From assembly GCA_963720265.1 (NCBI GenBank), contig CAVRET010000001.1, forward strand, positions 455,113 to 519,112: a DNA stretch of 64,000 nucleotides. The letters run 5' to 3'. Shown in pieces: positions 500 to 62,447 of the stretch (positions are counted from its first letter, which is position 1; every line of letters starts with the position of its first letter). A program made the position numbers and the translations under genes. The notes below the pieces were generated by a model. It worked only from the letters and a program-made list of their open reading frames with translations, was not told where the DNA came from and searched no databases. The DNA is from an uncultured bacterium. GTDB lineage: Bacteria; Patescibacteriota; Saccharimonadia; UBA4664.

Positions 500-585
500 T
501 GGTGCGGATGAAAGGACTCGAACCTTCACGCCTTGTGGGGCACCAGCTCCTAAGGCTGGCGTGTCTACCATTCCACCACATCCGC
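500..585 (-). tRNA. tRNA-Leu, anticodon UAG, type II with long variable arm, CCA encoded
   Basis: Reverse complement reads GCGGATG..CCAGC-CTTAGGA-GCTGG..long variable arm..GGTTCGAGTCC..CATCCGCACCA. It has a 7-bp acceptor stem, 5-bp anticodon stem, 7-nt loop with TAG central, and a GTTCGAGTC T-loop. Confidence 0.85.
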
Positions 586-4394: not shown

Positions 4395-5594
4395 TCACCG
4401 CCAGCGGATCTTGGCGCCCACGTACCAGGGAGGCACTTCACCGTTCTGAAGCGGTCCGGTGCCGTGCCGGGTGAATGGTTTTTCATCCTGGGCGGGAGCG
4501 CTACTGGCACGGCGTTTGGCGCCGGCCCGCTTCTTGATTCGGATCTCAAGGTTGCCGCCGTAGATACCGCGCACTGCTACCTTGCCGTCGACCGTGAGCT
4601 CGCACATGAGCTCGATACCATGATCGAGTGTCGGTATCTGCGTGGCCGCCTGATAATCGGCGAGCCGCATCCGGATGGTACCGGTTGGTACCTGCTCCTC
4701 GCCGTCGGGGCGAAGGCTGTAGGCTACCGGCAGCGACAGGCTAGCCTTGGGCGTCACGACGACGATCTTATCGGGCGAGAGCGCCAGGCCCGGATCGCGG
4801 AACATCCAGTCCGGCGCGAAATTGTTGCGGTCGAGCGCCAGGTTTACCGCATCGACGTCGCACAGGTTGGCGGCATTGGCGGCGCCGAGTCTGTCAGCAT
4901 AGAATGCCGCCAGCGACCCATCGGTGATGAGTTCGATGATCTCGTGGCCGCCCGACCTGATCCAGAGCTGGACTTGGAGGGTCCGAATCTGGTTATTGAA
5001 AAAGGTATCGCGGTGGTAGATCGACCCGTTCAGGAGTTCTCGCACTACCACGCCGATGAACGCGCCTTCAATCTCGGCAATGAGATTGCGCACGCGCCGG
5101 AGGCAAGCCGTTGCCTCCGGGTAGCCCGTGGGCCTCCAGTGGTCATACAGCCTGGCCACCACCCTACGAGCCTGCTCGAGAGCGGCGTCAAGTTCGCTCA
5201 CGCACACGTGGCGGGTTCGGAGCGTACTTGCCTGTGCTGCGAGCTCGGCCAGATCGGCGGCCAGCGTGTCGTAGTTCTCGACACGCCTTTGCCGTTTGGC
5301 ATGCTCGGTGTAGTGATACTGAAGGCTCGACGCTACGGGAGTGTCGCAAACTTCTTCGCCAGCTGCATCGACCACCACATAGGTGCGCCTCCAGATGGAG
5401 ACGGCTGGATCGATTTCGATTGCGATCAGGTCGTCTGGATGGGCGACCAGCATCGGCGGCACGATGGTCCGTGCGCACAGCCCATAGTCATCCTCATAGC
5501 GTACATGTACCAGGTGTCCGCGGACCTCGACCGAAAAAGCCGACGGCAGCGTGTTGACATCTCCCACGGCAAACCCCTTCCGCTGATTTTTCAA
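4395..5594 (-). CDS. Hypothetical protein (399 aa), function unknown
   Basis: Long ORF with balanced amino-acid composition on the minus strand. The overlapping plus-strand ORF 4302..5636 is Arg-rich and antisense-like. No recognisable family motif. Confidence 0.5.
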   Translation of the reverse strand: MKNQRKGFAVGDVNTLPSAFSVEVRGHLVHVRYEDDYGLCARTIVPPMLVAHPDDLIAIEIDPAVSIWRRTYVVVDAAGEEVCDTPVASSLQYHYTEHAKRQRRVENYDTLAADLAELAAQASTLRTRHVCVSELDAALEQARRVVARLYDHWRPTGYPEATACLRRVRNLIAEIEGAFIGVVVRELLNGSIYHRDTFFNNQIRTLQVQLWIRSGGHEIIELITDGSLAAFYADRLGAANAANLCDVDAVNLALDRNNFAPDWMFRDPGLALSPDKIVVVTPKASLSLPVAYSLRPDGEEQVPTGTIRMRLADYQAATQIPTLDHGIELMCELTVDGKVAVRGIYGGNLEIRIKKRAGAKRRASSAPAQDEKPFTRHGTGPLQNGEVPPWYVGAKIRWR

Positions 5595-5624
5595 TCGGAT
5601 TCTAAATTTATTAGCTGTCCTGCG

Positions 5625-6815
5625 TTAATTGACTAGCTTGTAGAATTCGGTTTTTCCAATGTTGATCTCGTCGCCGGGCTTCACGGCTTGCGCCGGGTCG
5701 GTCACAGTTTCGCCGTTTAAGCGGATGCCGTTTTGCTCTATAAGTGTGCGGACCTGGTTGCGCGAGAGTTTAATCCCCTGCTCCACCAGCAGATCGATGA
5801 GAACGGCCGGCTTTTTGTCGACTTTGAGCTCTTTGATCATATCCTTGGTGGGGCCCAGGTGATCACGGAAGGTGGCGTTCCAGGATTCCTCGGCTTTAAG
5901 GGCTGCTGTGTCCCCATGGTAGAGGCGCACGATTTCGCGCGCGAGCGAGGCCTTGGAGTCGCGCGGGTTGGCGCCTTCGGCCAGGGTTTTTACCAGGCCG
6001 TCAATGGTTTCGAGCGGAATATCGGTGCAGAGCTTGTAGTAGGGAGCGATGAGGTTGTCCGGAACGCTCATGACTTTACCGTACATATCGATGGGCGCGT
6101 CGGTGACGCCGACGTAGTTGTCGAGTGACTTGGACATTTTTTTGACGCCATCGAGGCCAACCAGCAGGTCCAGGGTAAAAACGATCTGTGGGCGCTGGCC
6201 GAGTTTCTTTTGCAGTGCACGGCCGGCCATGAGGTTAAAGAGTTGATCCGAGCCACCAAATTCGACGTCGGCTTCGAGCGCCACTGAGTCGTAGGCTTGC
6301 ATGAGCGGATAGAGCACCTCGTGCAGGGCCAGCTCGTGGCCCTCGCTCAAGCGCTTTTTGAAGTCATCACGTTCGATGGTTTGAGCAACCGAAACGTTTG
6401 AAGCCAAATTGAGCAAATCAGCAAAGCTCAGCTTGGCCAGCCATTCGGAGTTATAGCGGATTTCGGCTTTCTTAACATCCAGGAGGAGGTCAACCTGATC
6501 GAGATAGGTTTTAACATTTTCGGCAATGTCCTTGTCGGACAGCATCGGCCGGGTCTTGTCGCGCCCGGACGGGTCCCCTACTTTCGTGGTGTAGTCGCCG
6601 ATGAGAAAGATGACGGTATGGCCAAGCTCTTGGAATTTGCGGAGTTTGTGAAGTACGAGTGCATGACCAATGTGGAGATCCGGCCGTGTGGGATCGACGC
6701 CAAATTTGATCCGCAGCTTGTGCTTTTTGCCGGTGAGGGCGGCTTCAAGTTCTTCGCGGCCAATAATTTGGTCAACGCCGCGGGTGAGGAGATCGGTGAG
6801 ATCGGATTTGTCCAT
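5625..6815 (-). CDS. tyrS: Tyrosine--tRNA ligase
   Basis: 396 aa with class I aaRS HIGH (PDLHIGH), KMSKS (KKMSKS), and a C-terminal S4-like domain. Confidence 0.9.
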   Translation of the reverse strand: MDKSDLTDLLTRGVDQIIGREELEAALTGKKHKLRIKFGVDPTRPDLHIGHALVLHKLRKFQELGHTVIFLIGDYTTKVGDPSGRDKTRPMLSDKDIAENVKTYLDQVDLLLDVKKAEIRYNSEWLAKLSFADLLNLASNVSVAQTIERDDFKKRLSEGHELALHEVLYPLMQAYDSVALEADVEFGGSDQLFNLMAGRALQKKLGQRPQIVFTLDLLVGLDGVKKMSKSLDNYVGVTDAPIDMYGKVMSVPDNLIAPYYKLCTDIPLETIDGLVKTLAEGANPRDSKASLAREIVRLYHGDTAALKAEESWNATFRDHLGPTKDMIKELKVDKKPAVLIDLLVEQGIKLSRNQVRTLIEQNGIRLNGETVTDPAQAVKPGDEINIGKTEFYKLVN

Positions 6816-6870
6816 ATGCCGCTAAGTGTAGCAGAGGGAGCAAAGATTTTTTAGTGGGGAGATGATTATG

Positions 6871-7789
6871 AACCTGAGTCTCAAAACCCCCACATCAGCT
6901 GGTAGCTGAGCAGAATGCGGACATAGTGAACGAAGTAGCCCATGACACTTCGCGGAAATGAGCTGACGAGGTTCAAATGTTCTTTTAGGTAGTCAAAGGT
7001 GCATTCAACCTTGGGCCGCCTGCGAAGCAGGAGGCCCTGCCAGCTGGCCATGGGCTGCTTCTGGTTGCGTCGAGCGGGAGCCAGTATGTAGGTCTGGTGC
7101 AGATCCCACATCTTCTTGCTCATGACTTTGGCCAGGTAACCACCGTCACCCACGGCAATGACAGTTGCGTCGTTGACCAAATGTGGTATTTGCTGCGAGT
7201 CACTCTCATTGGCCGGCGTAAACCAGATGGCGCACAGACTGCCGTTGGCGGCGCAGCTGGCATGGAGCTTAAAACCAAAATGCCACCCTTGGTGGTTCAT
7301 ACCAAAGTCGGCCACTCCTTGGGCGACTTTGTGCCGGTCGGCCCGGACTAGCTTGCAGACCTCAAGCATGGTTGAGTCCATGAAGACGAGAGGCGCGTCC
7401 TTGACCAACAACTGGTCGAGCATGATGAGCATCTGAGGCAGAGCCAGGTGGCATTTACGGACCCACGATTGGTAACTGGGCAAGTGGAACCGGCGGTAAT
7501 AATACGTTTGGGACCAGATATATACACCCTTGAGGGTGCGTTGCGGGGCTACCAGGCAGCTAAATACCAGTAGGGCAACGCACTCATTTTGGTGCAAGAT
7601 GACGGGGCGGCCGCCCAGGGGATTTGCCGGCTGCCTCGGAAAGAAGCTATCTACCACCTCAACCAGTTTGACGATATGATGAGCACGTAAAAGACGCATT
7701 TGCTATTTCCTTGTTTGTTTTTGTCGACGTAACAAGGACAGCCTAGCGTCTTTTTACTTTGGTGGTCCAGGGGTTTTGAGACTCAGGTT
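6871..7789 (-). mobile_element. Insertion sequence, IS5/IS982-like, ~919 bp, with perfect 20-bp terminal inverted repeats AACCTGAGTCTCAAAACCCC and a 4-bp target-site duplication TATG (6867-6870 and 7790-7793)
   Basis: Left end 6871-6890 equals the reverse complement of right end 7770-7789. The flanking TATG direct repeats are seen directly. Encloses a single DDE transposase ORF. Confidence 0.8.
6881..7699 (-). CDS. DDE transposase of IS5/IS982-like family
   Basis: 272-aa ORF entirely inside the IS, with the stop codon inside the left IR. Contains a DDE_Tnp_1-like signature including ...VIAVGDGGYLAK... (the D-x-G-Y motif). Confidence 0.7.
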   Translation of the reverse strand: MRLLRAHHIVKLVEVVDSFFPRQPANPLGGRPVILHQNECVALLVFSCLVAPQRTLKGVYIWSQTYYYRRFHLPSYQSWVRKCHLALPQMLIMLDQLLVKDAPLVFMDSTMLEVCKLVRADRHKVAQGVADFGMNHQGWHFGFKLHASCAANGSLCAIWFTPANESDSQQIPHLVNDATVIAVGDGGYLAKVMSKKMWDLHQTYILAPARRNQKQPMASWQGLLLRRRPKVECTFDYLKEHLNLVSSFPRSVMGYFVHYVRILLSYQLMWGF

Positions 7790-7853
7790 TATGAGTGTTG
7801 AGTTTATCCTGTTTTTCTTGTATAATTTTCTTTCAACAATTCACTGAGATCCG

Positions 7854-8276
7854 GTGGATTGTGAGTTCCGAGAGGAGCATGGAGCAATGGAGGCTGACAA
7901 GGTCAATCCCGCTGTTCTTAGGCGACGCGATATCCCCGGTTCAGGCTGGCTGGTTCAAGAAAGCCTGCTGAACGCGATAAGAGAAAATGGTTCTGCCGCC
8001 GTGAGGTTGGGTGCTGATGGCCCAATCCTTATCCTCACGAGTCCAATGGACCACCGTTCGGGAAAGGTCGTTCAGGCTAAAGTAGATGTAGGTGGCGCGC
8101 TCGATTGCTCGGACTACGATCAGCTTACGATCCGCAGGACCAGCGATATGCTGCCCGGTGCGCCGGTGGCATTCTGGACAGGCGAGGTGATTTCCGGCCA
8201 GGACCTCAAGTGTGCGCTCGTCCTGGTTTCGCATGGCGTGTATTACCTCTACCCGCTTTTGACGGAGGTGGCTTGA
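7854..8276 (+). CDS. Hypothetical protein (140 aa)
   Basis: Plus-strand ORF with balanced composition downstream of an AT-rich promoter-like region with an extended -10 (TTGTATAAT at ~7828-7836). The overlapping minus ORF 7941..8282 is Arg-rich. Weak call. Confidence 0.3.
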   Translation: MDCEFREEHGAMEADKVNPAVLRRRDIPGSGWLVQESLLNAIRENGSAAVRLGADGPILILTSPMDHRSGKVVQAKVDVGGALDCSDYDQLTIRRTSDMLPGAPVAFWTGEVISGQDLKCALVLVSHGVYYLYPLLTEVA

Positions 8277-8417
8277 GCGCACCGCTTATTACCCGACTAT
8301 CGTGACGGGGGAGTGGCGGGTGAGAGCGCCTCAAATCGGGACAATGGCGCTCGACATTATGAGCTCGGGGTTCAATGGGCTGTTGCGGCCGTTTGGTCGC
8401 AACAGCCCATCGTTGTT

Positions 8418-15658: not shown

Positions 15659-16135
15659 CTACTTGTCCTTGCCCCAAGGCAAATGGTATTTATTCGATGG
15701 GCCGTCGTAGCCGTCGAACAGATAGAAGTCAGAGACCGTAACTTGGTAGAAACGGCCACCGTCAGGCCGGACGGCGTCGGCTATGAGGTCCGGTCGGTCG
15801 CCGAACCGAGCGCAATAGAGCTTGTAGGCCGGATGGTTGGCATCTATTGGCTCAAGCTCTTTGGCCAGGCCTTCGAAATAGACGCCGCGCACCTTTTGCC
15901 CGAGATGATGCTGAGTGACCATGTTGCCGGCCACATGCGGGTTGGCGGAGATTTCTTGGCTGTGACGGCGTTGGGGCGTGGAGCACCAGTATAAGTTGAG
16001 GCCGTCGTCGTAGGCAAAGTGGACCTCGCAGATCCAGGGCTTGTTGCCAGTACAGGTTGCGAGCGACATGTGAATGACTTGCGGAAGGTATTTTCTAATG
16101 GTAGCTTCGACGTTCATGTGCTCATGATACACCAA
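15659..16135 (-). CDS. Pyridoxamine 5'-phosphate oxidase family (FMN/F420-binding split-barrel) protein
   Basis: 158 aa, with sequence features of the PNPOx-like split-barrel fold. Confidence 0.65.
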   Translation of the reverse strand: MVYHEHMNVEATIRKYLPQVIHMSLATCTGNKPWICEVHFAYDDGLNLYWCSTPQRRHSQEISANPHVAGNMVTQHHLGQKVRGVYFEGLAKELEPIDANHPAYKLYCARFGDRPDLIADAVRPDGGRFYQVTVSDFYLFDGYDGPSNKYHLPWGKDK

Positions 16136-30831: not shown

Positions 30832-33800
30832 CTAGGTACGAGAAATTTGGCTCTCACCAACGAGAGCTGCGAGTTGGCTTAGGAGCTCATCGGTGATGGT
30901 AATACGAAACGGCAGGCGGATTTTCTTGGGCTGGTCAGTCCCTAGTAAGAGGTAGGCCTGGTCCGGGCCGTCGTGGGCCGAGAGAATGCGCTTGAGCTCG
31001 TGTAGGAGCTCGGCGTTGTTAAGGTCGGCCAGGCGCAAGGTAATGATGCCGGGTGTGACCACCGTGCCAGGGGCAGGGGCGGGCGCAGGCTTTGGCAGCA
31101 TGGCCTTACGTGGCAGGTGAACGGACTCGGATGGGCTGCTGGTTTTGGGTGCAGGGCGCTGGGCAGCTTGGGCGCGCGCAAGATTGTAGTCGGCGATACG
31201 AGCTGAATCCACCATTACTTTGGGCTCTGAAGTGAGGCGGCCGTCGCGATCTTTGGCCGAGATCTTGCCAGCGGCAATAATGACGTTGTCGGTCTCATAG
31301 ACCTCCGGGGAAGCCTCATAGGCCTTGGGGAAGACAATGAGCTCGGTGACGCCGGATTTGTCTTCCAGGCCGACAAAAGCCATGGTGGCGCCGTTTTTGG
31401 TGGTGATTTTACGCACCATGGTAATAAGGCCACCGACGCGCACGACTTTGCCGTCGCCTTCAGGCGTGATGCGGCTTAAGGCCTGGGTTTGGCCGGATAG
31501 GTAGCTCTCGTAGTCGTCGAGCGGATGCCTGCTCAGGTAGAGGCCAAGCAATTCGCGTTCCCAGCCGAGTTGCTCGCGGTTTGAGGTGGGCTGGGGCGGC
31601 GAATCGAGGCGCAGGGCCGGGGCGCTGTCTTCGGCTCCCAGACTGCCAAAGATGTCAATCTGGCCGGACAGAGCGTTTTTTTGCGACTTGGCGGCATAGG
31701 CGGTAATGGTGTCGAGATTAAAGAGCAACTGGCCGCGGTCGTTTGCAATGAGATTGTCAAAGGCACCGCATTTGGCCAGGGATTCCCAAACTTTTTTGTT
31801 GCACTCACGGGCGCTGACCCGTTTGGCAAAATCTTCAACGCTAGTGAACCGGCCGTCCTCGCGGGCGAGCAGGATAGCTTCGATCGGTCCGGAGCCAATA
31901 TTTTTTACCGCTGACAGCCCAAACCGAATGCTGGTTTTATCCGGTGCAACAGAAAACTCAAGCACGGATTCGTTGACATCCGGCGGTAAGACCGTAATGC
32001 CCAGCCGCTGGCACTCGGCTACTTCAATAGCGATGCGGTCAATGTTGCCGTAGTCGCTGGTGAGCAATGCTGCCATAAAGGCTGAGGGGTAATGGGCCTT
32101 GAGGTAGGCAGTTTGGTAGGCGATAAGCGCGTAGCAGGCCGAGTGGGCCTTGTTGAAGCAGTAGGCGGCAAAGGCTTCGAGTTGCTCCCACAGCTCTTCC
32201 ATGAGCGCGCGGTCGGCACCCACGGTTTGAATGGCGCCCTCGATGAAGTCGTTTTTGATTTTGGCCATGAGCTTGGGGTCTTTCTTGCCAATGGCCTTGC
32301 GCAAGGTGTCGGCCTGGCCGCCGGTGAAGCCGCACATCTCCTTGGAGATCTGCATGACCTGTTCCTGGGTGACCATAACGCCGTAGGTGGACTTGAGGGC
32401 GTTTTCCATGGCCGGGTGGAGGTACTCGATTTTTTTGCGACCGTGCTTGCGCTCAATGAAGTCGTCAATCCACTGAATAGGACCGGGGCGGTAGAGCGCC
32501 ACCATGGAGATAATGTCATCGAACACCGTGGGCTCAAGTTCGCGCAAATAACGCTTCATCCCGGCTGATTCAACCTGGAACACGCCGGTGGTGTCGCCGC
32601 GCGACAGCAGCGCGAAGGTAGCGGCGTCATCGAGCGGGATGGTAGCGATATCAATGGTTTGGCCATAGACCTCGCGCACGAGCTTTAAGGTGTCATTGAT
32701 AATGGTGAGGTTAGACAGACCCAGGAAATCCATTTTGAGCAGGCCGAGTTCTTCGACCGCATGGAGTTCGAATTGCGTGCAAATGCCGCCTTTTTGGGCG
32801 CGCTGGAGCGGGGCATAGTTTACGACCGGTTCGGGCGCAATCACGACACCGGCGGCGTGAATGCCGTTTGAGCGAATCGTACCCTCGAGGCGGGTGGCCT
32901 GATCGATGAGAGTTTTGGCGCGGGGGTTGGTACCAGTATTCTTTAACCAGCTCGGGATCGGGCGTCTGCTCGCCGCCTTTACCTGGTTGAATACCAGCCG
33001 ACACGGCTAGCGGCACGTGGCGACCCTGGACCGGCATAGGCACGAGTTTGGCAATGCGGTCGACCTCGTCGTAGCTCATGCCCAGTACGCGGCCGGTGTC
33101 GCGCACCGAGTTTCTGGCCGCCATGGTGCCGAAGGTAATGATTTGCGCCACGCGTTCGGCACCATATTTCTCAGTTACATAATCGATAACCTCGCCGCGG
33201 CGAGTGTCTTGGATATCAATATCAATATCAGGCATGGAGACGCGGTCGGGGTTTAAGAAGCGCTCAAACAGCAAATCGTACTTAATGGGGTCGAGGTCGG
33301 TGATGTTCATAACGTAGGCCACAATGGAGCCGGCCGCACTCCCCGCCCTGGGCCGAAGATAATGCCCTGGTTTTTGCCCCAGTTTATGAAGTCGGCGGTA
33401 ATCAGGAAGTAGCCGTCGTATCCCATTTTGGCAATGACCCCGAGCTCGTATTCGAGCCGTTCGACGGCAGCGTGATCAACGAGTTTTCTGGCCTTGTCTT
33501 CCGTAATGTGAGCAATGTCTTCCTTGGGAATGCCGCCGTAGCGCCAGGCCAGGCCTTGCCAGCAGAGATGATGCAAGTATTCGCGCTCGGCTTTGAATTC
33601 CTTGGGGACCTCGAACGTAGGGATGAGAATGCGGCCGAGCTCGATCTCGACGTTGCAGCGCTCAGCGATTTTAACCGTATTTGCAAGTGCCTCAGGTACA
33701 TGGGCAAAGCGTTCAGCGATTTCCTCTGGGCTTGAGACATAGAGGTCCATTTCCATTTTCATGCGATTGGGGTCGGACAGCTCTTTGCCGGTCTGGACGC

Positions 33801-34524
33801 ACAGCAAAATCTCGTGAGCTTCGCGCTCCTCGGGACGCGAATAGTGCGAGTCGGCCGTGACGACAAGTGGAATGCCGGTTTTGCGTGAGAGCTCGATTTT
33901 GGCTGCATTAAGCTTTTTTTGCATATCCCATTGATGCTCGTGAGCCTGTAGCTCGAGGAAGTAATTACCCCGGCCGAAGGTTTCATCGTACCAGCGGGCG
34001 ACGTTTTCGGCCTCAGCCAGATTGCCGGATTCAATATGGCCAGCTACTTCTCCACCGGCACAGGCGGAGAGTGCAATGAGCCCTTCGTGATATTTAGCCA
34101 GCAGCTCACGGTCGACGCGCGGCTTGTAGTAGTAGCCTTCGAGCTGGGCAATGGTGACAAGCCGCATAAGGTTGTGGAAGCCGGCCGTTGTTTCGGCGAG
34201 CAGTATGAGGTGATAGGGGTTGGCATCCTGGCGCCCGGCTTTGTCGAGGTGGGTGCGCGGCGCCACGTAGGTTTCGACACCAATGATGGGTTTGATATCC
34301 CTTTTCCCCGCCTCTTTGTAAAACTCAATGGCGCCGGACAGCGTACCGTGGTCGGTGAGCGCCACGGCTGTCATGCCAAGCTCGGCCACGCGGTCGAGCA
34401 TGCGGGGGACTTTTTGCAGCCCGTCGAGGAGCGAGTAGTGGCTGTGGTTGTGTAAGTGGACAAATCCCGGCTTGGTACCGGCTTTTGGCACAACTTCAAC
34501 CTTCCCCTCGCTCACTTCGGGCAC
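30832..34524 (-). pseudogene. dnaE: DNA polymerase III alpha subunit DnaE, interrupted by two apparent frameshifts. One is a 1-nt deletion in the GPGRGSAAGS motif near 33329-33334. The other is a +1/-2 indel at a C5/G5 run near 32922-32932.
   Basis: Three consecutive ORFs (33307..34524 PHP domain; 32711..33322; 30832..32844) translate to contiguous DnaE sequence when frames are switched. The conserved GPGRGS reads GPGRG-V in frame, and [21 protein letters not shown] is encoded out of frame relative to the upstream EYW. Confidence 0.75.
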
Positions 34525-38414: not shown

Positions 38415-39865
38415 TATTTTCCGAGCCGCTCCTTGAGAAGCTTTGTGATGAGGGGCGGGTTGCCTTTGCCTTGGGTGGCCTTCATGGCGGCGCCAACGAG
38501 CGCGCCGAGAGCCCTAGCGTTGCCGGCTTTGTAATCTGCGGCCGCGGCTGGATTGGCAGCCAGAACGTCGTCGACTACCTTGGCGAGCTCATTAACGTTT
38601 GATTCCTGGATGAGGTTCATTTCGCGGGCAAGTTCGGCTGGATCATGGTCGTAATGGGGTTCGGCGCGGAGCTTGGCGAGTAGCTCGCGGGAGTTGGTGG
38701 AGCTGAGTTCGGATTTTGCAGCCATGTCGGCGACACGATTTAAGATCTCGGGTGTCAGATGCGATTCGGGGCCGTGTTCTTCGCGCTGTTTAATCTCCGG
38801 CCCGGTGAGCCAGGTAAAGACGAAACGCGCGTGCTTGGGTTCAAGTCTGTGGGCCTTAAACCAGAGCTTGGCAAGTTCCGGCTCAGCCACCAGTACTTCG
38901 GCCTCCTTGTGGGCGATTTTGGCCTCGATGAGAAGTTTGCGTAAGTCATTGGGCAGGAAATCAAAGTCACCGGCGGCATCGGCCATGGCTTTCGGGATTA
39001 CCAGCGGGGGTAAGTCGGGTTCCGGGAAGTAGCGGTATTCATCGGCATCTTCTTTGGAGCGCATGGCGTAGGTTTTTTGCTTGGCCTCGTTCCAGCCGCG
39101 GGTTTCCTGGCGGATTTTTTCGCCTTTTTCGACCGCTTCGATTTGGCGCTGCGTCTCGTATTCAATGGCGCGCTCGACGTTGCGAAAACTGTTGAGATTC
39201 TTGGTCTCGGTGCGGGTACCAAAGGGTAGCCCTGGCTTGTGGACGCTGACGTTTACATCAAAGCGCATGTTGCCGTAATAGAGATCCGCATCCGAGGCGC
39301 CGGTGTAGCGGGCCAGGTTGTGCAGCTCCTGGGCGTAGGCTTTGGCTTCGGCGGCACTGCGCATGTCGGGCTCGGAGACGATTTCGAGCAGCGGAGTTTC
39401 GGCGCGGTTGAGGTCAACCAGCGAGTAATCCGCGCCGTCCGGGTGGGTGAGCTTACCGGCGTCGCCTTCGAGGTGGGCGCGGGTGATGCCGACGCGCATG
39501 GTTTTGCCCTCCACCGGGAATTCGACCCAGCCGTTCGGCACGATAGGCTCGTCGAACTGGGTGATTTGGTAGCCTTTGGGGAGGTCGGGGTAGAAATAGT
39601 TCTTGCGATCAAATTTGGTGTGAAGCTTTTCCGGATATGTGGCGTTTAGGGCTTTTCCAAGCTGTAATGCCAGCTCGACCGCGCGTTTGTTGAGTACTGG
39701 TAAGGCGCCCGGCTGACCGGTGCAGATTTCGCAAACGTGGGTGTTGGGCTCGGCGTCTCGCGAATCGTTGTCGCATGAGCAAAACAACTTGGATTTGGTC
39801 GCGAGCTGCACGTGCGTTTCCAGGCCGATGACTACTTCATATTGGTCCCGCAATTTCGTATCCAT
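38414..39865 (-). CDS. gatB: Asp-tRNA(Asn)/Glu-tRNA(Gln) amidotransferase subunit B
   Basis: 483 aa with the conserved GatB N-terminus (LETHVQL..., CSCDND) and C-terminal YqeY-like domain. Confidence 0.9.
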   Translation of the reverse strand: MDTKLRDQYEVVIGLETHVQLATKSKLFCSCDNDSRDAEPNTHVCEICTGQPGALPVLNKRAVELALQLGKALNATYPEKLHTKFDRKNYFYPDLPKGYQITQFDEPIVPNGWVEFPVEGKTMRVGITRAHLEGDAGKLTHPDGADYSLVDLNRAETPLLEIVSEPDMRSAAEAKAYAQELHNLARYTGASDADLYYGNMRFDVNVSVHKPGLPFGTRTETKNLNSFRNVERAIEYETQRQIEAVEKGEKIRQETRGWNEAKQKTYAMRSKEDADEYRYFPEPDLPPLVIPKAMADAAGDFDFLPNDLRKLLIEAKIAHKEAEVLVAEPELAKLWFKAHRLEPKHARFVFTWLTGPEIKQREEHGPESHLTPEILNRVADMAAKSELSSTNSRELLAKLRAEPHYDHDPAELAREMNLIQESNVNELAKVVDDVLAANPAAAADYKAGNARALGALVGAAMKATQGKGNPPLITKLLKERLGK

Positions 39866-40287
39866 TACAACGTAAACTCCTTGATTTTCCAGGGCCGTTC
39901 GTTCAAGTCAGAGAATCGGATCCACTTGGGCGTCACTTTAAAATACATGATCCCCGGTTCGTGCTCCCATTTTTTGGCTCGAGGGTTTTTAGCGAAGTAG
40001 ACCTGCTTGCACTGGTCTAACTCGTCGCCGCTCAGTTCCGCGGCTGTGCCTTCGAGTTGAACAGTTATGTTTTTATCCCAGCCAATAACAAGTGCGACAC
40101 GCGGATCACGTTTCAGGTTGGCATTTTTACGTGAAGTAGCGTAGCAATCGATAATTATCTCCAGGTTTGGCGTGCTCGCGAACTCGACCACGGCGGCTTG
40201 GGGTCGGCCATCTTCGGCCAGTGTTGAGATGGTCATGATGACTGTTTTTTCAACCAATTCCTGGACCATGTGGAGTTCGGGGTTCAT
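39865..40287 (-). CDS. Pyridoxamine 5'-phosphate oxidase family (split-barrel) protein
   Basis: 140-aa PNPOx-like ORF; GC noticeably lower (~50%) than the window average. Confidence 0.6.
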   Translation of the reverse strand: MNPELHMVQELVEKTVIMTISTLAEDGRPQAAVVEFASTPNLEIIIDCYATSRKNANLKRDPRVALVIGWDKNITVQLEGTAAELSGDELDQCKQVYFAKNPRAKKWEHEPGIMYFKVTPKWIRFSDLNERPWKIKEFTL

Positions 40288-40288
40288 G

Positions 40289-40672
40289 TCATAGATTCTC
40301 GTCGATGAATTTCTTGAGCGCCAACAAATCTTGTTGTGTGTGGTCGTAAAAATGGGTTCTTATTCCGACCGACTCAGCACTTTTGACCGCTTCAGGATTG
40401 TGCTCAAAGTAGACAACGTCTGCTGGCTTCAGGCCAAAATGACTCAGCATTTTTTCGAAGTATTCGGGATCAGTTTTCTCCGGATTGTGCCGCAACGTGA
40501 AGATTTCGTACGGACACCTCTCCAGGTGGAATTCTTTGAATTGCTCGTCATTGGCACCGGTTAAGACTATTTTCTCGTTGGGATAGCTTTCAAGCAGCTT
40601 GTGCATTTCCTCGAAAACAGTCCCGTCTTCCAAAATTACACCATTTATGGCATCGACTAGGATTGTTTTCAT
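40289..40672 (-). CDS. Small HAD-like hydrolase-family protein (tentative)
   Basis: 127-aa ORF beginning MKTILVDAINGV... (a degenerate DxD-like start). GC ~47%, the lowest in the window. Confidence 0.4.
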   Translation of the reverse strand: MKTILVDAINGVILEDGTVFEEMHKLLESYPNEKIVLTGANDEQFKEFHLERCPYEIFTLRHNPEKTDPEYFEKMLSHFGLKPADVVYFEHNPEAVKSAESVGIRTHFYDHTQQDLLALKKFIDENL

Positions 40673-41148
40673 AGCACGACCCCGTGTGGCACGACCTGGC
40701 GTTCGTTGCCAAAGTTGGCGGAATCGAAATAGCCGACCTCAGTTGGCGTGATTTTAACAAATTTCCAGTGGGCGGCGGACCCGAGGTAAGCGGCCAACTC
40801 GGATGGTATGCCGGGGATTTCGGGAGAACGATCGTAGTAGATGCGGTGGGCGGCCGCGACCTGCTCGTCGGGCAAGAGCGTTGCCTGACCGCTGGCTTGC
40901 AGCCCGATAACATCGCCGATCGGAGACTGGCCGGTACTGAATATGGCGATCGCTACTTCAGGGTTGGTCTTGAGGTTTTGCATATGGCGCGACTCGGGTT
41001 GCGAGATGAAATAGAAGTTGAGGGCGTTGTCGTACACAAAATAGACCGGATTGCTCCATGGGCCTTTGGCGCCAGCGGTTGCGAGGGCCATAAATTGGGT
41101 GGCGTCGAGGGCCGTTTTGACATGTACTGGCCAGTTGAATGATTTCAT
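40669..41148 (-). CDS. Pyridoxamine 5'-phosphate oxidase-like FMN-binding family protein
   Basis: 159-aa split-barrel-like ORF, translationally coupled (ATGA overlaps at both ends). Confidence 0.5.
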   Translation of the reverse strand: MKSFNWPVHVKTALDATQFMALATAGAKGPWSNPVYFVYDNALNFYFISQPESRHMQNLKTNPEVAIAIFSTGQSPIGDVIGLQASGQATLLPDEQVAAAHRIYYDRSPEIPGIPSELAAYLGSAAHWKFVKITPTEVGYFDSANFGNERQVVPHGVVL

Positions 41149-43352: not shown

Positions 43353-43444
43353 GGGGTTAGTATAGGGCGAAATGAGGCTGCCTGCCAAGTCGCGTGGGCG
43401 TAAGGGGTGATTTTGACAGAAGGGCTTGTGCGTGAGATTCTAAT

Positions 43445-43753
43445 GTGACCCACAATCTTCTTCCCGAGGGGGGAGCGTACATCATGAGCACTGCTGAAGC
43501 GCAGACAGGCACCGCAGGCCAGAGCGGCCCGACGGTCAGCGATCACCGCAACCGGCTTGACGAGTTCCTGACGCTGAAGGTGGTACTCGCCTTCTGCATT
43601 CTGGTCGTGGCGGGGCTCCTTGCCGGGGCTCTTGAAATGAACCAGCGTTATTTCGCGAACCTGCTGATCTTCTTCCTGGCGATATTGGTCGTCGCGATTG
43701 CAGGCGCCGCCTTTGTCATCGAATTCGATATCCATCGACGACAACGAACATAA
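43445..43753 (+). CDS. Small hydrophobic protein with two predicted TM helices
   Basis: 102-aa ORF (possibly starting at an internal Met) followed immediately by a strong intrinsic terminator. Confidence 0.35.
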   Translation: MTHNLLPEGGAYIMSTAEAQTGTAGQSGPTVSDHRNRLDEFLTLKVVLAFCILVVAGLLAGALEMNQRYFANLLIFFLAILVVAIAGAAFVIEFDIHRRQRT

Positions 43754-43762
43754 CGACGCGAT

Positions 43763-43810
43763 GTTTCGTAGGGCTCCGGCCTGGGGAGCCCTACGAAACA
43801 TTATTTTTTG
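43763..43810. terminator. Rho-independent terminator: 15-bp stem GTTTCGTAGGGCTCC/GGAGCCCTACGAAAC, 6-nt loop, followed by ATTATTTTTTG
   Basis: Seen directly. It serves the plus-strand small gene; the stem is symmetric, so it may also terminate the convergent minus-strand gene. Confidence 0.8.
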
Positions 43811-43818
43811 TCGGCTGA

Positions 43819-44220
43819 TTATGAGGGCGTGATGGTGAGCCGGAGCTTGCGGGTCTTGGGCCCGTCGAGCTCAATGAGAACGAGGTGTTGCCAGGTGCCG
43901 ACCATGAGTTTGCCGGCCTGAACCGGCAGCGACACCGACGGCCCTATAACTGAGGCCAGAAAATGGTCGGGCGCGTGCTCGGGGTCGTGCGGGTGCCGCC
44001 ACGGCCTCATGGGGATCATGAGGTCGAGCGCGTCGAGCAAGTCGCGGTCGGTGCCGGGGTCGAGGTTGGCGGTGGTGACGGCACAGGCTGAATGCAGTAC
44101 GGTCAACGTAGCCAGGCCGGTAGTGCGGGCCGGGATGAGACTTTGAACCTGATCAGTCAGGTCAATTACCTGCTTCCTGCCTTGGGTTTTGACAGATAAA
44201 TCCACTGTTATTCCATGCAA
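43819..44220 (-). CDS. YjbQ/UPF0047-family protein (secondary thiamine-phosphate synthase-like)
   Basis: ...LHGITVDLSVKTQGRKQVIDLTDQV... matches the YjbQ N-terminal core. No ATG is in frame near it; a TTG start near 44220 is likely. The track ORF to 44346 adds an Arg-rich extension that overlaps the next gene. Confidence 0.5.
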   Translation of the reverse strand: MHGITVDLSVKTQGRKQVIDLTDQVQSLIPARTTGLATLTVLHSACAVTTANLDPGTDRDLLDALDLMIPMRPWRHPHDPEHAPDHFLASVIGPSVSLPVQAGKLMVGTWQHLVLIELDGPKTRKLRLTITPS

Positions 44221-44633
44221 TACATTGGACAGGCAATTTGTGAAGCGGAGGTCCCTTGGACATGCCCGCCGCAAGGCGCGCACGTGGGGTGTGGCACGGG
44301 TTGGACCGTGGGCTGCGGCGTGGGCGTGAGAACCGGTGAAGGCCAAGGCGTAGGACTCGGTACCGGATACATGATGCTCGACGGGGTCGGCGGTAGTATG
44401 CTGTTGCCCTGCGGCGCTGTGGTCTGTGACGAGGCCGGGACACCAGCCTGTGCGCCTGCTTGTAACTCAGCCGGCGACTGAGGGGACTGGTTTTGCGACA
44501 GTGTGGCCTGCGTCTGGCTCGCCGTTACTTGCATAGTCGGGGTAGCGCCCGGCACTCGTCCCGGTGGCCAAATAAGTGTACCGGCCGCAATAACGACAAT
44601 TACCGTACTAGTCGCGATCTGAATGATTCGCTT
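44208..44633 (-). CDS. Secreted/anchored Pro/Thr/Gln-rich protein with Cys-containing C-terminus
   Basis: Start at MKRIIQIATSTVIVVIAAGT (signal/TM), then low-complexity P/T/S/Q repeats. Confidence 0.35.
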   Translation of the reverse strand, partial: KRIIQIATSTVIVVIAAGTLIWPPGRVPGATPTMQVTASQTQATLSQNQSPQSPAELQAGAQAGVPASSQTTAPQGNSILPPTPSSIMYPVPSPTPWPSPVLTPTPQPTVQPVPHPTCAPCGGHVQGTSASQIACPMYCME

Positions 44634-44709
44634 CATGCTTCCACCTAATATCACCGTTAGCATAACGCGCGGGCACTACACCAATCAAGCGTTAGGATAT
44701 CGGGCAGTA

Positions 44710-52975: not shown

Positions 52976-53537
52976 TCAGACCCCGGCCATCTCCGGCTTG
53001 GCGATGGCGCGCGCGCTAACGGCAGGCGGCAGCCGCTCGAACACGAGCTCGCGTTCGCCGACGCCTTCGACGGGGATCGTCAGGACCACCTGGCCATCTG
53101 TGATGTCATACGTGCCTGCAGGCTGGTCGGGACGGCCGCAGTCGAGGTTCTCGGCCGCAACGTAGCCTCCGGGACACCTCCAGTCCGGATTGAGCTCAGG
53201 AATGCCGCCGGCGACGATGGTCAACACCCCGGCATTCACTGCGATAGCGATGCTCGCCTCGCCGTCTCCTGCGACGGTCGTGAACTCCGCACTGTCGATG
53301 ATCGTGAACTCGGCGCTGTTCAGAATCCAGCAGGCGAAGAAGGGGTCGGCCGGAGGCTCCGCGGGCCTCGACCGCACCGCCAGCCCCCAGGGCGAACTTT
53401 ATGTCGTGTGTGGGGTCGCGCTGGATCATCGTGACGAGGCCCTCCACGAGCAGGCCTTTGAGTGCGGCCACGATACCCGGAGCCGTTTTCGGCGTGATCT
53501 GGCCGCTCGACGGGAAGGTAGCGCTACTGATTGTCAT
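52976..53537 (-). pseudogene. Hypothetical gene apparently split by a frameshift (N-terminal part in ORF 53196..53537, C-terminal part in ORF 52976..53377) and containing a ~24-bp internal tandem duplication (53281-53335)
   Basis: Two overlapping minus-strand ORFs each have a plausible half and an Arg-rich nonsense half. The direct repeat TCGTGAACTCnGCnCTGT... encodes AEFTIIDSAEFTTV. Confidence 0.3.
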
Positions 53538-56873: not shown

Positions 56874-57016
56874 AAAGATCTATCAAGAGTGCGGCGAGGG
56901 ACCTAGCCCTGCGACCCGCCGGCAACCTGCGGAACTCGCAAGGTGCCACATCTAGCCCGGACCCGGGAAGATAGCATTTATGCGCCTTTCTTGCCGGATG
57001 TCCGGGAGAAAGGTTT
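56874..57016 (+). promoter_or_regulatory. SAM-I (S-box) riboswitch with terminator-type expression platform, directly upstream of metK
   Basis: The S-box core motifs are present: ATCAAGAGtGCGGCGAGGGAC...GCCC...CCCGCCGGCAACC...GGTGCCA...AAGATAG. The P1 closing helix is CTATC/GATAG. Then comes the hairpin CCTTTCTTGCCGGATGTCCGGGAGAAAGG followed by TTTTTT and, at 57020, the ATG. Confidence 0.8.
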
Positions 57017-57019
57017 TTT

Positions 57020-58177
57020 ATGTCATACCAAATGTTTGCCTCTGAGTCGGTGTGCGCCGGACACCCGGATAAACTGTGCGACCAGATTTCGGATGCGATT
57101 GTGGATGCACTGTTGGAGCAGGACCCACTGGCCCGAGCCGCCGTAGAGGCGGCTGTGACCCGAAACCGGGTGATGCTGCTTGGCGAGGTGTCAACGCGGG
57201 CGGCGGTAGATTACGAGGCGGTGGCGAGGGCGGAGATTCGCAGGCTCGGGTATACGAACCCTATGATCGGCTTTGATGACAAGGCCCAGATTGATGTGTA
57301 TATCGGCACCCAGTCAACTGAGATTGCAGCTGGAGTGGACGCCGATGGGGCCGGTGACCAAGGGATGATGTTTGGCTATGCCTGCCATGAAACCCCTGAA
57401 TATATGCCGCTTGCGATCATGTTGGCACACCGGCTGACACGAACGCTTGATGCGGCCCGGGAGTCGGGTGATTTACCTTATTTGCGGCCGGACGGCAAGG
57501 CGCAGACGGTAGTACGCTACGAGAATGAACGGCCGGTGGAGGTTGTGCACGTCACGATCGCTGCACCGCATGATGAAGCGGTGCTGCTTGAGACGGTGAG
57601 ACGCGATGTATACACACAGGTAGTGCAGCCGGCTCTGGCGGCGTACGGCTTTCACTTAGCACAGCGGAATTTGGTCGTCAACGGCACCGGAGTGTGGCAC
57701 GCGCCGGGGCCGGCGAGCGACGCTGGACTGACTGGGCGAAAAGTGGTGGTTGATGGTTACGGCGGTGTCGCCCGGGTGGGCGGCGGCGCCTTTAGCGGCA
57801 AAGATCCCACCAAGGTCGACCGTTCAGCGGCGTACGCCGCGAGGTATTTGGCCAAAAATATCGTGGCAGCCGGCCTGGCCGAGCGGGCCGAGGTAGCGCT
57901 CGCGTATGTGATTGGGCAGGCGCGGCCGGTCATGCAGACGGTTGAGACATTCGGGACCGAGGCCGTGCCATTATCCGAGATACAGGTGTTTATGGACAGC
58001 CTGCTCGATACGTCTGTGGCCGGAATTGTGACAGGTCTTAATTTGCGCCGGCCGATGTACCGGAATACGGCAGCGTATGGACATTTCGGGCGGACGGAAT
58101 TTCCGTGGGAGGCCGTTGTTAAAGATATAGGCAAGGAGTCGGACGGTGCGCCTGCCGGCATTCGGGTTTTGCGCTAA
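57020..58177 (+). CDS. metK: S-adenosylmethionine synthetase
   Basis: GAGDQGMMFGYA, GGGAFSGKDPTKVDRS, 385 aa. Confidence 0.9.
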   Translation: MSYQMFASESVCAGHPDKLCDQISDAIVDALLEQDPLARAAVEAAVTRNRVMLLGEVSTRAAVDYEAVARAEIRRLGYTNPMIGFDDKAQIDVYIGTQSTEIAAGVDADGAGDQGMMFGYACHETPEYMPLAIMLAHRLTRTLDAARESGDLPYLRPDGKAQTVVRYENERPVEVVHVTIAAPHDEAVLLETVRRDVYTQVVQPALAAYGFHLAQRNLVVNGTGVWHAPGPASDAGLTGRKVVVDGYGGVARVGGGAFSGKDPTKVDRSAAYAARYLAKNIVAAGLAERAEVALAYVIGQARPVMQTVETFGTEAVPLSEIQVFMDSLLDTSVAGIVTGLNLRRPMYRNTAAYGHFGRTEFPWEAVVKDIGKESDGAPAGIRVLR

Positions 58178-61514: not shown

Positions 61515-62447
61515 CTAAAATCCGAAGGCTCGCCACCACCGTTGCTGCGGGACCCGCGGGTAGCCGCCCCCTGTGGTGTAAGGGCTCGTGGTGTCTCTTT
61601 GCCAGCGGCCAATGCCCTCGCCGTGCCGGTACCAGTGGCCGGAAGGCGACTGACCGGAAGTTGAACTAGCCGAGGTGCGCGTAACCGTGAAGCCCCCACC
61701 GCCTGAGCTCCCGGAGACTGACACAAGGGCGAGGCCTGCTTGGCTCGCCATAGTGTAGGACTGGGCGCCGGCCTGGCTTAGGTTTTCGGCAGTGCCATCG
61801 GTGGTCGTGCTCGCATTGGTGAAGGTGACGCTACCGAAATTATCGAGCGGTACCTGGCCGGCGCCGTCTGAGGGGTCTTCTTCGATCCATTCGGCTGAAG
61901 AATTGGTGGAGTTGTAATAGGTTTGGGTTTCAAAGCTTTGGCCAGTGGTTGTATCGGTCAGTTGAATAGTCCACAATCCGGATCCATCTTGGCTTAAGCC
62001 GGCCTGCATGTGGTCGCCGGGGTTTACGGATATGGTTTGGATGGTGGTTTCAGAGTCCGGCAAAAGCTCATAGAAGGCGGTGGATTGGGTAGAGCCGTCG
62101 GGATTTACCTGGTCTTGGGTGCCAACTTGGATGAGGTCAGTTGAATCCATACCGCCAATGCCGATCCAGGCGGCGTCGGCGGAATCAGGGTCTGCGCTTG
62201 ATGCCTGCGGCACGGTCCAGGCGCCGGATACAGCAGTGTAGTTGCTTCCGGTGACCGCGTAACCTGACCAGTTGGCCGTGGTATTTTCGAGACCGCCGCC
62301 TGTGGCGTTCGTTTGCGGCGCCGGCTGCGTACCGGCCGTTGATACAACCAGGCCCGACCCACCGGTCGAAACATGCACGCTGGGGAGCGCACCTTTTACC
62401 AGTACGGCTGATGCCACGAGACTTATGAGAAGGAGAACTTTTGCCAT
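61515..62447 (-). CDS. Secreted peptidase G1 (eqolisin/scytalidoglutamic peptidase A4)-like protein
   Basis: Signal peptide MAKVLLLISLVASAVLV; motifs NWSGYAV, AAWIGIGG, AEWIEEDP resemble the glutamic peptidase family; Ser/Thr/Gly-rich C-terminal region. Confidence 0.55.
   Translation of the reverse strand: MAKVLLLISLVASAVLVKGALPSVHVSTGGSGLVVSTAGTQPAPQTNATGGGLENTTANWSGYAVTGSNYTAVSGAWTVPQASSADPDSADAAWIGIGGMDSTDLIQVGTQDQVNPDGSTQSTAFYELLPDSETTIQTISVNPGDHMQAGLSQDGSGLWTIQLTDTTTGQSFETQTYYNSTNSSAEWIEEDPSDGAGQVPLDNFGSVTFTNASTTTDGTAENLSQAGAQSYTMASQAGLALVSVSGSSGGGGFTVTRTSASSTSGQSPSGHWYRHGEGIGRWQRDTTSPYTTGGGYPRVPQQRWWRAFGF

Follow-up and report, generated by a model that had tools for sequence, protein, structure and literature searches.

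A dnaE gene split by two single-base frameshifts in a Saccharimonadia genome, probably through local consensus indels

Introduction

Genes fragmented by indels are a described class of artefact in long-read or low-coverage metagenome-assembled genomes (MAGs) (IDEEL test; PMC9262707; proovframe, 10.1101/2021.08.23.457338; Kastor, PMC12007338). In long-read MAGs below ~40-fold coverage, consensus indels lead to frameshifted gene calls (PMC9262707), and the collapse of nearby allelic variants into one sequence (haplotype or strain collapse) likewise yields frameshifted ORFs (PMC8445201). Frame changes may also be genuine. Genes of the replication and translation machinery are decoded in two frames in dnaX (-1, tau/gamma) and prfB (+1), each with a defined, conserved slippery sequence and stimulator (stem-loop, internal SD or stop codon). 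Frameshift-disrupted ORFs also accumulate as pseudogenes in reductive genomes such as that of Mycobacterium leprae, where they carry multiple lesions under relaxed constraint and the essential, single-copy genes of replication escape such damage.

The dnaE locus described here can be likened to each of these. As in the indel-fragmented MAG genes, a conserved essential gene is cut into adjacent overlapping ORFs by single-base indels, a second assembly does not show the same state, and a related MAG on a Flye-style contig (ena:ERZ25039517:contig_115960, 123,953 bp; L028) has its dnaE shattered by at least six frame changes. Unlike in those genes, the surrounding sequence is clean (the second assembly departs from it by 1 indel per ~43 kb), the one homopolymeric site of the two is short, and the errors are clustered in ~700 nt. 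As in haplotype or strain collapse (PMC8445201), the problem stretch lies between two de Bruijn contig ends, residue R298 (33633) next to one of these ends is naturally variable (K/R/G), and the second site, TA[C][T]GG, could represent synonymous TAC and TAT alleles written in tandem; no second haplotype was recovered, though, the two assemblies differ by indels only, and such a mechanism is only a possible one for this locus. The dnaE locus shares with dnaX and prfB a frame change within a replication or translation gene and has none of their signals; with the pseudogenes of M. leprae it shares disrupted ORFs, a small genome and a host-dependent lineage, whereas every invariant residue of this dnaE is kept.

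Results

Three overlapping ORFs rebuild one DnaE

The window, i.e., the whole stretch of 64,000 nucleotides that was analysed, holds the following features in and around the gene.

30832..34524, minus strand: dnaE (DNA polymerase III alpha subunit), the whole gene if intact, 1230 aa upon repair of two single-base indels
33307..34524, minus strand: ORF1, 405 aa, spanning the PHP domain and the first part of the catalytic domain; it ends in GPGRG and is then out of frame
33345..33633, minus strand: 289-nt dnaE stretch that no retrieved contig of the second (Logan) assembly covers, between the end of contig L024 (33634) and the start of contig L025 (33344)
33340..33344, minus strand: junction 1, GGGC-GGGG-A, lacking one base, the third of the Gly395 codon
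32711..33322, minus strand: ORF2, 203 aa as listed, with an Arg-rich out-of-frame tail
32960..32962, minus strand: CCC, the codon of Pro522, which conservation supports as the correct reading in the window; CC in the Logan assembly
32932..32936, minus strand: junction 2, gaa-ta[C]-tgg-t with one base too many, as judged by family conservation and its absence from the Logan assembly
30832..32844, minus strand: ORF3, 670 aa as listed, in the same frame as ORF1

The reading frames over the three ORFs are -2/-1/-2 and not one uninterrupted frame; ORF1 and ORF3 share a frame because their stop coordinates lie 2475 (3x825) apart. The true DnaE reading follows the ORF2 frame from ~33339 (SAAGS...) to ~32937 (...PELVKEY) and the ORF3 frame from ~32931, upstream of the first start codon available to that ORF. 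The two shifts are opposite in sign, with one base missing at junction 1 and one extra at junction 2, and an uninterrupted product of 1230 aa results once a G is inserted in the G-run and a base near 32930 is taken out. This product scores 1345 bits against NF005298 and 1312 bits against NF004226, two NCBIfam DnaE equivalogs with curated cut-offs of 1260 and 1002, and covers profile positions 3-1148 of 1151 in the equivalog comparison. The first-pass annotation had proposed that three consecutive minus-strand ORFs rebuild a full DnaE after two frame changes, and this reading is confirmed. The repaired product stayed below the cut-offs of the DnaE2/ImuC model NF004225 (632 bits, cut-off 939) and of the PolC models NF001688 (213, cut-off 873) and TIGR01405 (192, cut-off 1043). 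None of the intein families matched the repaired protein, which hit only Pol III families and, weakly, a PHP-related phosphatase family.

The gene occupies the orthologous syntenic position that is common to Saccharimonadia relatives. A single dnaE ORF was found in 129/129 relatives examined, including all eight genome loci and all of the best 120 database hits (1165-1263 aa). Against these 120 relatives, the three segments retain all 232 family-invariant columns (69+49+114, thus 49/49 in the ORF2 segment), and 439 of the 445 columns conserved at ≥95% are matched, with intact relatives mismatching at a median of 3 (range 0-30). No sign of relaxed constraint or of further lesions was detected in the dnaE segments, which have no internal stops and have lost no invariant residue. 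ORF1 is publicly deposited as a protein of its own (405 aa), encoded on an NCBI/ENA contig of 567,794 bp, and an intact relative (P0126, 1251 aa, single ORF) is hidden in the 90% cluster of ORF1 itself. Many other short DnaE fragments are found on long ENA/NCBI contigs.

Junction 1 lies in a short G-run

At junction 1 the window has the string GGGAGTGCGG at 33343-33334. The residues G-P-G-R-G-S-A are invariant in 120/120 relatives, and the GPGRGSAAGS motif is regained by adding one base. The window has G4 here, while the intact reading requires GGGGG or GGGGA; the lost base belongs to the G4 run at 33341-33344 or to the A that follows at 33340. A 1-nt deletion in this motif had been reported at 33329-33334; the missing base is upheld, and its site is moved by ~7-10 nt to 33340-33344. 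This G4 is one of 273 G/C runs of at least four in the window.

Logan contig L025 begins exactly at 33344, the first G of the junction-1 run. An intact gene with the node GGGGAGTGCGG... requires G as the preceding base, and the window has C there. The start of L025 at the G-run may reflect a branch between G4 and G5 states. A scan of metagenome DNA for junction 1, with and without the extra base, gave 0 matches, and a protein search for fragments spanning the junction returned no near-identical fragment; what it brought to light was the shattered dnaE of L028.

Junction 2 is not a homopolymer

In the downstream frame, the window's codons 'acc aac ccc cgc gcc aaa' already encode TNPRAK, which places the extra base in C-TGGT (32932-32936). 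Without the C at 32936 the sequence reads gaa tat ggt acc aac ccc (E-Y-G-T-N-P), and the dropped base is at the wobble position of the Tyr codon. The residue before Pro at this point is Asn in 111/120 relatives, Ser in 9/120 and Gln in none. A repair within the nearby C5 run, giving ...EYWYQPRAK, was rejected, as it places Gln where the relatives have Asn (111/120) or Ser (9/120). The C5 run had been located accurately at 32922-32926 by the first-pass annotation, which had put the frameshift inside it; conservation and the Logan assembly instead place the extra C at 32936. With the context TA[C]TGG, junction 2 is not a homopolymer, and the idea that both frameshifts sit at short homopolymers thus holds for junction 1 (G4) only.

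An independent assembly differs from the window at junction 2

The Logan assembly of run ERR11523669 is an independent 31-mer de Bruijn assembly (parameters in PMC12424806) of the same organism as the window. Five Logan contigs cover ~46.3 kb of the window with a total of three single-base indels and one mismatch. Outside dnaE, only one indel and one mismatch were found in ~43 kb; the other two of the three indels are at junction 2, 24 nt apart. The first is the C at 32936, which is missing from L025; the junction-2 lesion is therefore not reproduced in the independent assembly, which reads EYGTNPRAK, the repair that had been predicted beforehand from conservation. The second is CC for CCC at 32960, a frameshift of Logan's own at 24 nt from the junction. 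If indels arose at the background rate (1 per ~43 kb), at least two would fall in the 409 nt that separate the junctions with a Poisson probability of ~5e-5.

All differences between the assemblies inside dnaE are indels, and 8.3 kb of comparison gave 0 mismatches. This is a signature of technical error, since natural polymorphism would be mostly substitutions. The CC...TA-TGG state written by Logan occurs in the reads at least twice, and at least one frameshifted molecule type is thus physically present in the data. At the one contig junction that was checked (L027/L024), the overlap is exactly 30 nt (k-1), which indicates that contigs there end at links of the graph, not where coverage stops. 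The contexts of the Logan contig ends have no common homopolymer signature. An intact copy of this exact dnaE was not recovered, the Logan version being frameshifted too. Exact look-up of the repaired full-length and partial products was negative, and so was the positive control (the 166-aa product of Logan itself), which makes the look-up uninformative.

The rest of the window is accurate

The ~15 syntenic neighbour genes of dnaE are all single-frame. The window is not generally error-prone, and the trouble is local to ~700 nt of dnaE. Clean neighbours and ~43 kb of near-identical sequence make 'random homopolymer error' too simple an explanation. No RNA gene, repeat or hairpin that accounts for the local trouble in dnaE was found, and the 64-kb window holds no second Pol III alpha or PolC.

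Codon-usage scoring alone was unable to separate sense frames from their antisense shadows, and synteny tblastn together with a frameshift-aware Viterbi scan took its place. In the region at 49-51 kb, alternating frames resembled further frameshifts, a reading that was rejected, as Prodigal on the Logan contig predicts three normally spaced genes. The ORF pair at 52976..53537 is frameshift-like: a GGAGG and an ATG at 53537 are followed by an Arg-rich out-of-frame tail, and the coding signal changes frame at ~53325-53346. It had been cited as a third split gene in support of sequencing error, a use that was not validated, as the pair is identical in the window and Logan assemblies and has no homologues beyond itself. 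Separately, of 20 candidate ORFs that were scanned individually against Pfam, only four had matches; the two strong ones, SDR and UPF0047, span the whole of their profiles.

Discussion

The two dnaE frameshifts are most likely consensus indel artefacts in a locally ambiguous stretch of ~700 nt. One base would have been lost at 33340-33344 and one gained at 32936, both as single-base consensus errors, where the reads over the ~700 nt from 33634 to 32936 may have been heterogeneous in indel state. The cause could be either recurrent read errors or closely related co-existing variants that were collapsed into one consensus. The source may be a long-read assembly. The first-pass annotation also regarded sequencing or assembly error as most likely, and the evidence favours this conclusion; of the reasoning behind it, the homopolymer argument applies to junction 1 only, and the third split gene lends it no validated support. 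A generic error model does not predict these sites, as the window is very accurate, the G4 run is short and junction 2 has no homopolymer.

The indels could instead be real and very recent, with dnaE inactivated or null alleles segregating and another polymerase gene elsewhere performing replication, which we regard as unlikely. Such a state would fit the observations that both assemblies are frameshifted in the dnaE stretch (though at different sites), that Logan's frameshifted state is in the reads at least twice, that the ORF pair at 52976-53537 is frameshift-like identically in both assemblies, and that in a window otherwise so accurate random error is a priori rare. It is opposed by the absence of relaxed constraint (232/232 invariant residues and no stops within segments), by the orthologous syntenic position with no second Pol III alpha or PolC in the window, and by the intact dnaE of 129/129 relatives examined. 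The assembly differences, as indels without substitutions, are also unlike natural polymorphism, and three independent null indels in 410 nt of an essential gene in one population are far less parsimonious than noisy reads. That this copy is decaying while another alpha subunit is encoded elsewhere is disfavoured by the pristine state of the gene and by its orthologous syntenic position. That a natural population of a Saccharimonadia episymbiont maintains several different frameshift alleles in its only dnaE is very improbable; if it did, replication would be carried out by another polymerase, or the frameshifts would be tolerated or corrected during expression.

Readings in which the split gene is still productive fare worse. 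Programmed ribosomal frameshifting, -1 at the G-run and +1 ~407 nt downstream, would give a full-length DnaE, since shifts of opposite sign restore the original frame, and a slip of the P-site tRNA-Gly from GGA to GGG at CGG-GGA would produce exactly GPGRG-SAAGS; that a replication gene can be frameshifted is known from E. coli dnaX. Yet junction 1 has no X XXY YYZ heptamer, permitting only that single-tRNA slip, and junction 2 has no slippery, hungry or stop codon context, with tRNA-Tyr and tRNA-Trp unable to re-pair in the +1 frame on UAC-UGG-U. The RNA downstream is not unusually structured (z relative to dinucleotide shuffles, +0.66 and +0.14; in two control segments, +1.38 and -0.50), the frame change is not conserved in the relatives examined, all of which are single-frame, and the junction-2 base is missing from the second assembly. 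Two inefficient shifts in series would also leave very little product. With slippery site, RNA structure and conservation all absent, the programmed frameshifting that had been listed as an alternative is contradicted, and we consider it extremely improbable. A polymerase that is truly split, with three separately translated polypeptides joined non-covalently or via inteins, would draw on a possible GTG or ATG start on each ORF, and intein-split dnaE occurs in cyanobacteria. The ORFs overlap in different frames, however, and separate translation would sever the invariant GPGRGSAAGS motif and lose ~29 conserved residues (TNPRAK...) upstream of the first ORF3 start codon. No intein family matched, the splits are single-base frame changes and the relatives are unsplit, which leaves this arrangement with a negligible probability.

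Local consensus error, the favoured explanation, has consequences for the use of such genomes. Accurate assemblies can hold locally clustered errors, and a frameshift is not proved real by a low global error rate or by the lack of a long homopolymer. In one 90%-identity protein cluster the 405-aa fragment now serves as representative, and it masks the intact 1251-aa relative in searches. Real breaks would be remarkable, as they would mean that a CPR bacterium has an essential single-copy replicative polymerase in an inactivated or recoded form. Most likely, this dnaE is an ordinary, single, orthologous gene of Saccharimonadia (TM7/Patescibacteria) that is intact in the living organism, and the public genome carries a falsely fragmented version that would score as a pseudogene or a missing marker.

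Three frame-split pieces of an ordinary dnaE

The first-pass annotation described three consecutive minus-strand ORFs that rebuild a full DnaE (Pol III alpha) after two frame changes, and we found them at the coordinates claimed:

33307..34524, minus strand: ORF1, 405 aa; reads to GPGRG, then out of frame until the stop at 33307
32711..33322, minus strand: ORF2, 203 aa; DnaE continuation in the second frame
30832..32844, minus strand: ORF3, 670 aa; DnaE reading begins well upstream of the first possible start codon

The stops of ORF1 and ORF3 are separated by 2475 (3x825) nt and the two are therefore in the same frame, so the two lesions, ~407 nt apart, are opposite in sign, with one base missing and one extra. 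In a computed repair, adding one G in the run at the first junction and removing one base at the second gave an uninterrupted 1230-aa protein. In profile searches two DnaE equivalog models scored this protein above their curated cut-offs, the DnaE2/ImuC and PolC models scored it below theirs, and no intein family matched. No second Pol III alpha or PolC was found within the 64-kb window. The nearest genomes are Saccharimonadia (TM7/Patescibacteria) MAGs with 64-75% protein identity; the top database match to the dnaE product shares 78% identity, and a 1251-aa JGI protein (P0126) shares 79%. The gene order flanking dnaE is common to the window and these relatives, which marks the window's gene as the orthologous copy. 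It is an ordinary dnaE; on the public NCBI/ENA source contig (567,794 bp), ORF1 and an ATG-started ORF2 are entered as separate proteins.

Exact positions of the indels

Inspecting both junctions base by base confirmed the frameshifts and required their positions to be corrected. G-P-G-R-G-S-A is invariant in 120 relatives and the remainder of the GPGRGSAAGS motif nearly so, which places the base lost at junction 1 in the third position of the Gly395 codon, within the G4 run 33341-33344 or at the A at 33340. At junction 2 the relatives read E-Y-x-[S/T/G/N/A]-N-P-R-A-K (Asn in 111/120, Ser in 9/120). TNPRAK is already encoded by the window's 'acc aac ccc cgc gcc aaa', so the extra base lies within C-TGGT (32932-32936) and not in the G5/C5 run 32922-32926 to which the shift had been assigned. 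A repair within that C5 run was rejected, as it would place Gln at the conserved Asn position. The extra base occupies the wobble position of a Tyr codon; TA[C][T]GG might combine the two alleles of a synonymous TAC/TAT variant side by side, a detail that is no more than suggestive.

Comparison with an independent assembly

Logan assemblies are built from 31-mers, discarding k-mers seen once and simplifying the graph with Minia3, and report contigs >150 bp linked to another contig (PMC12424806). A query with the small ORF at 52976-53377 matched its own product in the Logan assembly of run ERR11523669, from the same organism, in which five contigs cover ~46.3 kb of the window span.

Logan contigs matching the window, with their differences from it
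L023, window 63377-42975: 1 indel, 1 mismatch
L027, window 42109-39576: none
L024, window 39605-33634: none
L025, window 33344-25027: 2 indels
L026, window 16900-7789: none

In total there were three single-base indels and one mismatch. Outside dnaE (~42.9 kb) we found one indel, at 43468, and one A/C mismatch, at 43769. The 43468 site (C6 in the window, C5 in Logan) is intergenic, in the spacer that separates gatC from a small plus-strand ORF, and only one other G/C run in the window has a length of at least 6. The two indels inside dnaE both fall at junction 2, separated by 24 nt; against a background of 1 per ~43 kb, the Poisson chance of at least 2 indels in the 409 nt between the junctions is ~5e-5. 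The C at 32936 is absent in Logan, which reads gaa tat ggt acc aac ccc (EYGTNPRAK), one of the repairs predicted beforehand from conservation. At 32960-32962 Logan has CC where the window has CCC and thus carries a frameshift of its own; accordingly, its gene calls give a partial product of 166 aa and then the 670-aa ORF3. Judged by conservation, CC is the wrong state.

The overlap of L027 and L024 is exactly 30 nt (k-1), so the contig ends at that junction are graph links rather than coverage gaps. The first base of L025 is the first G of the junction-1 run. At this node (GGGGAGTGCGG...) the preceding base must be G in any intact gene whereas the window has C, and a branch is therefore the outcome expected of G4/G5 read heterogeneity; the evidence that the L025 start reflects such heterogeneity is strong but indirect. 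L024 ends at 33634, and the Arg298 codon opens with the following base; this residue varies K/R/G in the family, so some true micro-diversity may also be present.

Accuracy and other features of the window

About 15 conserved neighbour genes align to orthologues in one frame each, and dnaE is the only conserved gene compared in this way that switches frame (-2/-1/-2). In a frameshift-aware Viterbi scan over the window, just three places showed an unnatural change of frame on the same strand, namely the two dnaE junctions and ~53325-53346; the remaining boundaries were normal stop/start junctions. Alternating frames at 49-51 kb were rejected as frameshifts, three normally spaced genes being present there. 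The window contains 273 G/C runs of at least 4 and 40 of at least 5, and it is not generally error-ridden. No RNA gene, repeat or hairpin accounting for local difficulty was found in the dnaE locus.

The third switch falls in a small minus-strand gene (52976-53537) with a strong start (an AT-rich upstream stretch, GGAGG and ATG at 53537). From this ATG it runs into an Arg-rich tail, and a normal-looking continuation lies in a second frame (a 133-aa call from GTG 53377), with the coding signal changing frame close to runs of C4 and G5. The window and Logan agree throughout this region, and a search of 1.84 billion representatives returned no homologue of its product other than itself; either an orphan gene with a true frameshift or a systematic error could account for it.

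Further features of the window are:

500-585, minus strand: tRNA-Leu, the only tRNA in the window
15659-16135, minus strand: PNPOx_N (pyridoxamine 5'-phosphate oxidase-like) gene
39865-41148, minus strand: PNPOx_N pair flanking a hypothetical gene immediately downstream of gatB
~43400-44700: ~1.3 kb insertion relative to L005, a relative's locus where the gatC homologue adjoins a DUF1761-like gene
56877-56977, plus strand: SAM riboswitch (RF00162, 59.5 bits), directly upstream of metK
57020-58177, plus strand: metK (S-adenosylmethionine synthetase)
61515-62447, minus strand: Peptidase_A4 (PF01828) match, 310 aa, from the Logan gene table

The riboswitch-metK arrangement is ordinary. Within the insertion are small hypothetical ORFs and a YjbQ/UPF0047 gene whose Pfam domain is complete. 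The PNPOx_N genes are among several small paralogues in the window, and in L028, a contig of a related MAG, the domain is apparently fused to GatB in a single 653-aa call. Peptidase_A4, the family of glutamic peptidases (eqolisins), has been described mainly from fungi and is thus unusual for a Patescibacteria genome.

Origin of the dnaE frameshifts

The repaired protein keeps every residue that is invariant in the family (232/232 columns; 49/49 for the middle piece, which is out of frame). Of 445 columns with ≥95% conservation it agrees at 439, with only conservative changes at the other six; intact relatives differ at a median of 3 such columns (range 0-30). The gene is a single ORF in 8/8 related genome loci, in the best 120/120 database matches and in P0126. 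On this evidence dnaE is not decaying. A real, recent inactivation is accordingly unlikely: both assemblies are frameshifted in dnaE and Logan's state occurs at least 2 times in the reads, but several independent null indels without substitutions would be needed, in an orthologous, essential gene with no relaxed constraint seen. Programmed frameshifting, which had been listed as an alternative and would yield DnaE from the sequence as written, is contradicted and highly improbable. There is no slippery heptamer, tRNA re-pairing is impossible at UAC-UGG-U, downstream RNA structure is absent at the junctions (z = +0.66 and +0.14), the single-frame relatives do not conserve the shift, and Logan does not reproduce junction 2. 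Less credible still is a polymerase of three separately translated pieces, which would cut the invariant motif and lose ~29 conserved residues.

Across two assemblies of one read set, three different frameshifting indels fall within 410 nt of dnaE, each contradicted by the other assembly or coincident with a contig boundary, and that stretch has zero substitutions between the assemblies. In natural polymorphism substitutions would dominate; indels without them are characteristic of technical indel noise or of a mis-collapsed consensus. With the second assembly disagreeing at junction 2 and the gene otherwise flawless, the earlier proposal of sequencing or assembly error is favoured, and the dnaE frameshifts are most probably consensus artefacts, which would arise by either of these routes. 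Residual consensus indels are reported for long-read bins below ~40-fold coverage (PMC9262707), and the collapse of nearby allelic variants leads to frameshifts (PMC8445201).

Broken dnaE in public genomes of the clade

Contig L028 (ena:ERZ25039517:contig_115960; 123,953 bp, Flye-style name), from a related Saccharimonadia MAG, has the same dnaE neighbourhood as the window (gatB, MscS-like channel, DUF5665). Its dnaE (4901-8375) is likewise frame-broken: the frame changes six or more times within 3.4 kb, against two changes in the window, and at least 6 ORFs are called; one break, an AAG-GAG to AAGAG deletion, is ~8 nt from the position of the window's junction 2. L028 shows how common the artefact is in public genomes of this clade, and many further DnaE fragments of 120-270 aa are encoded on ENA/NCBI contigs of 90 kb to 1 Mb. 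The 405-aa fragment from the window's source contig represents a 90%-identity cluster including the intact 1251-aa JGI-metagenome DnaE, which is therefore invisible to representative-only searches. The practical lessons concern database hygiene, and that errors may cluster locally.
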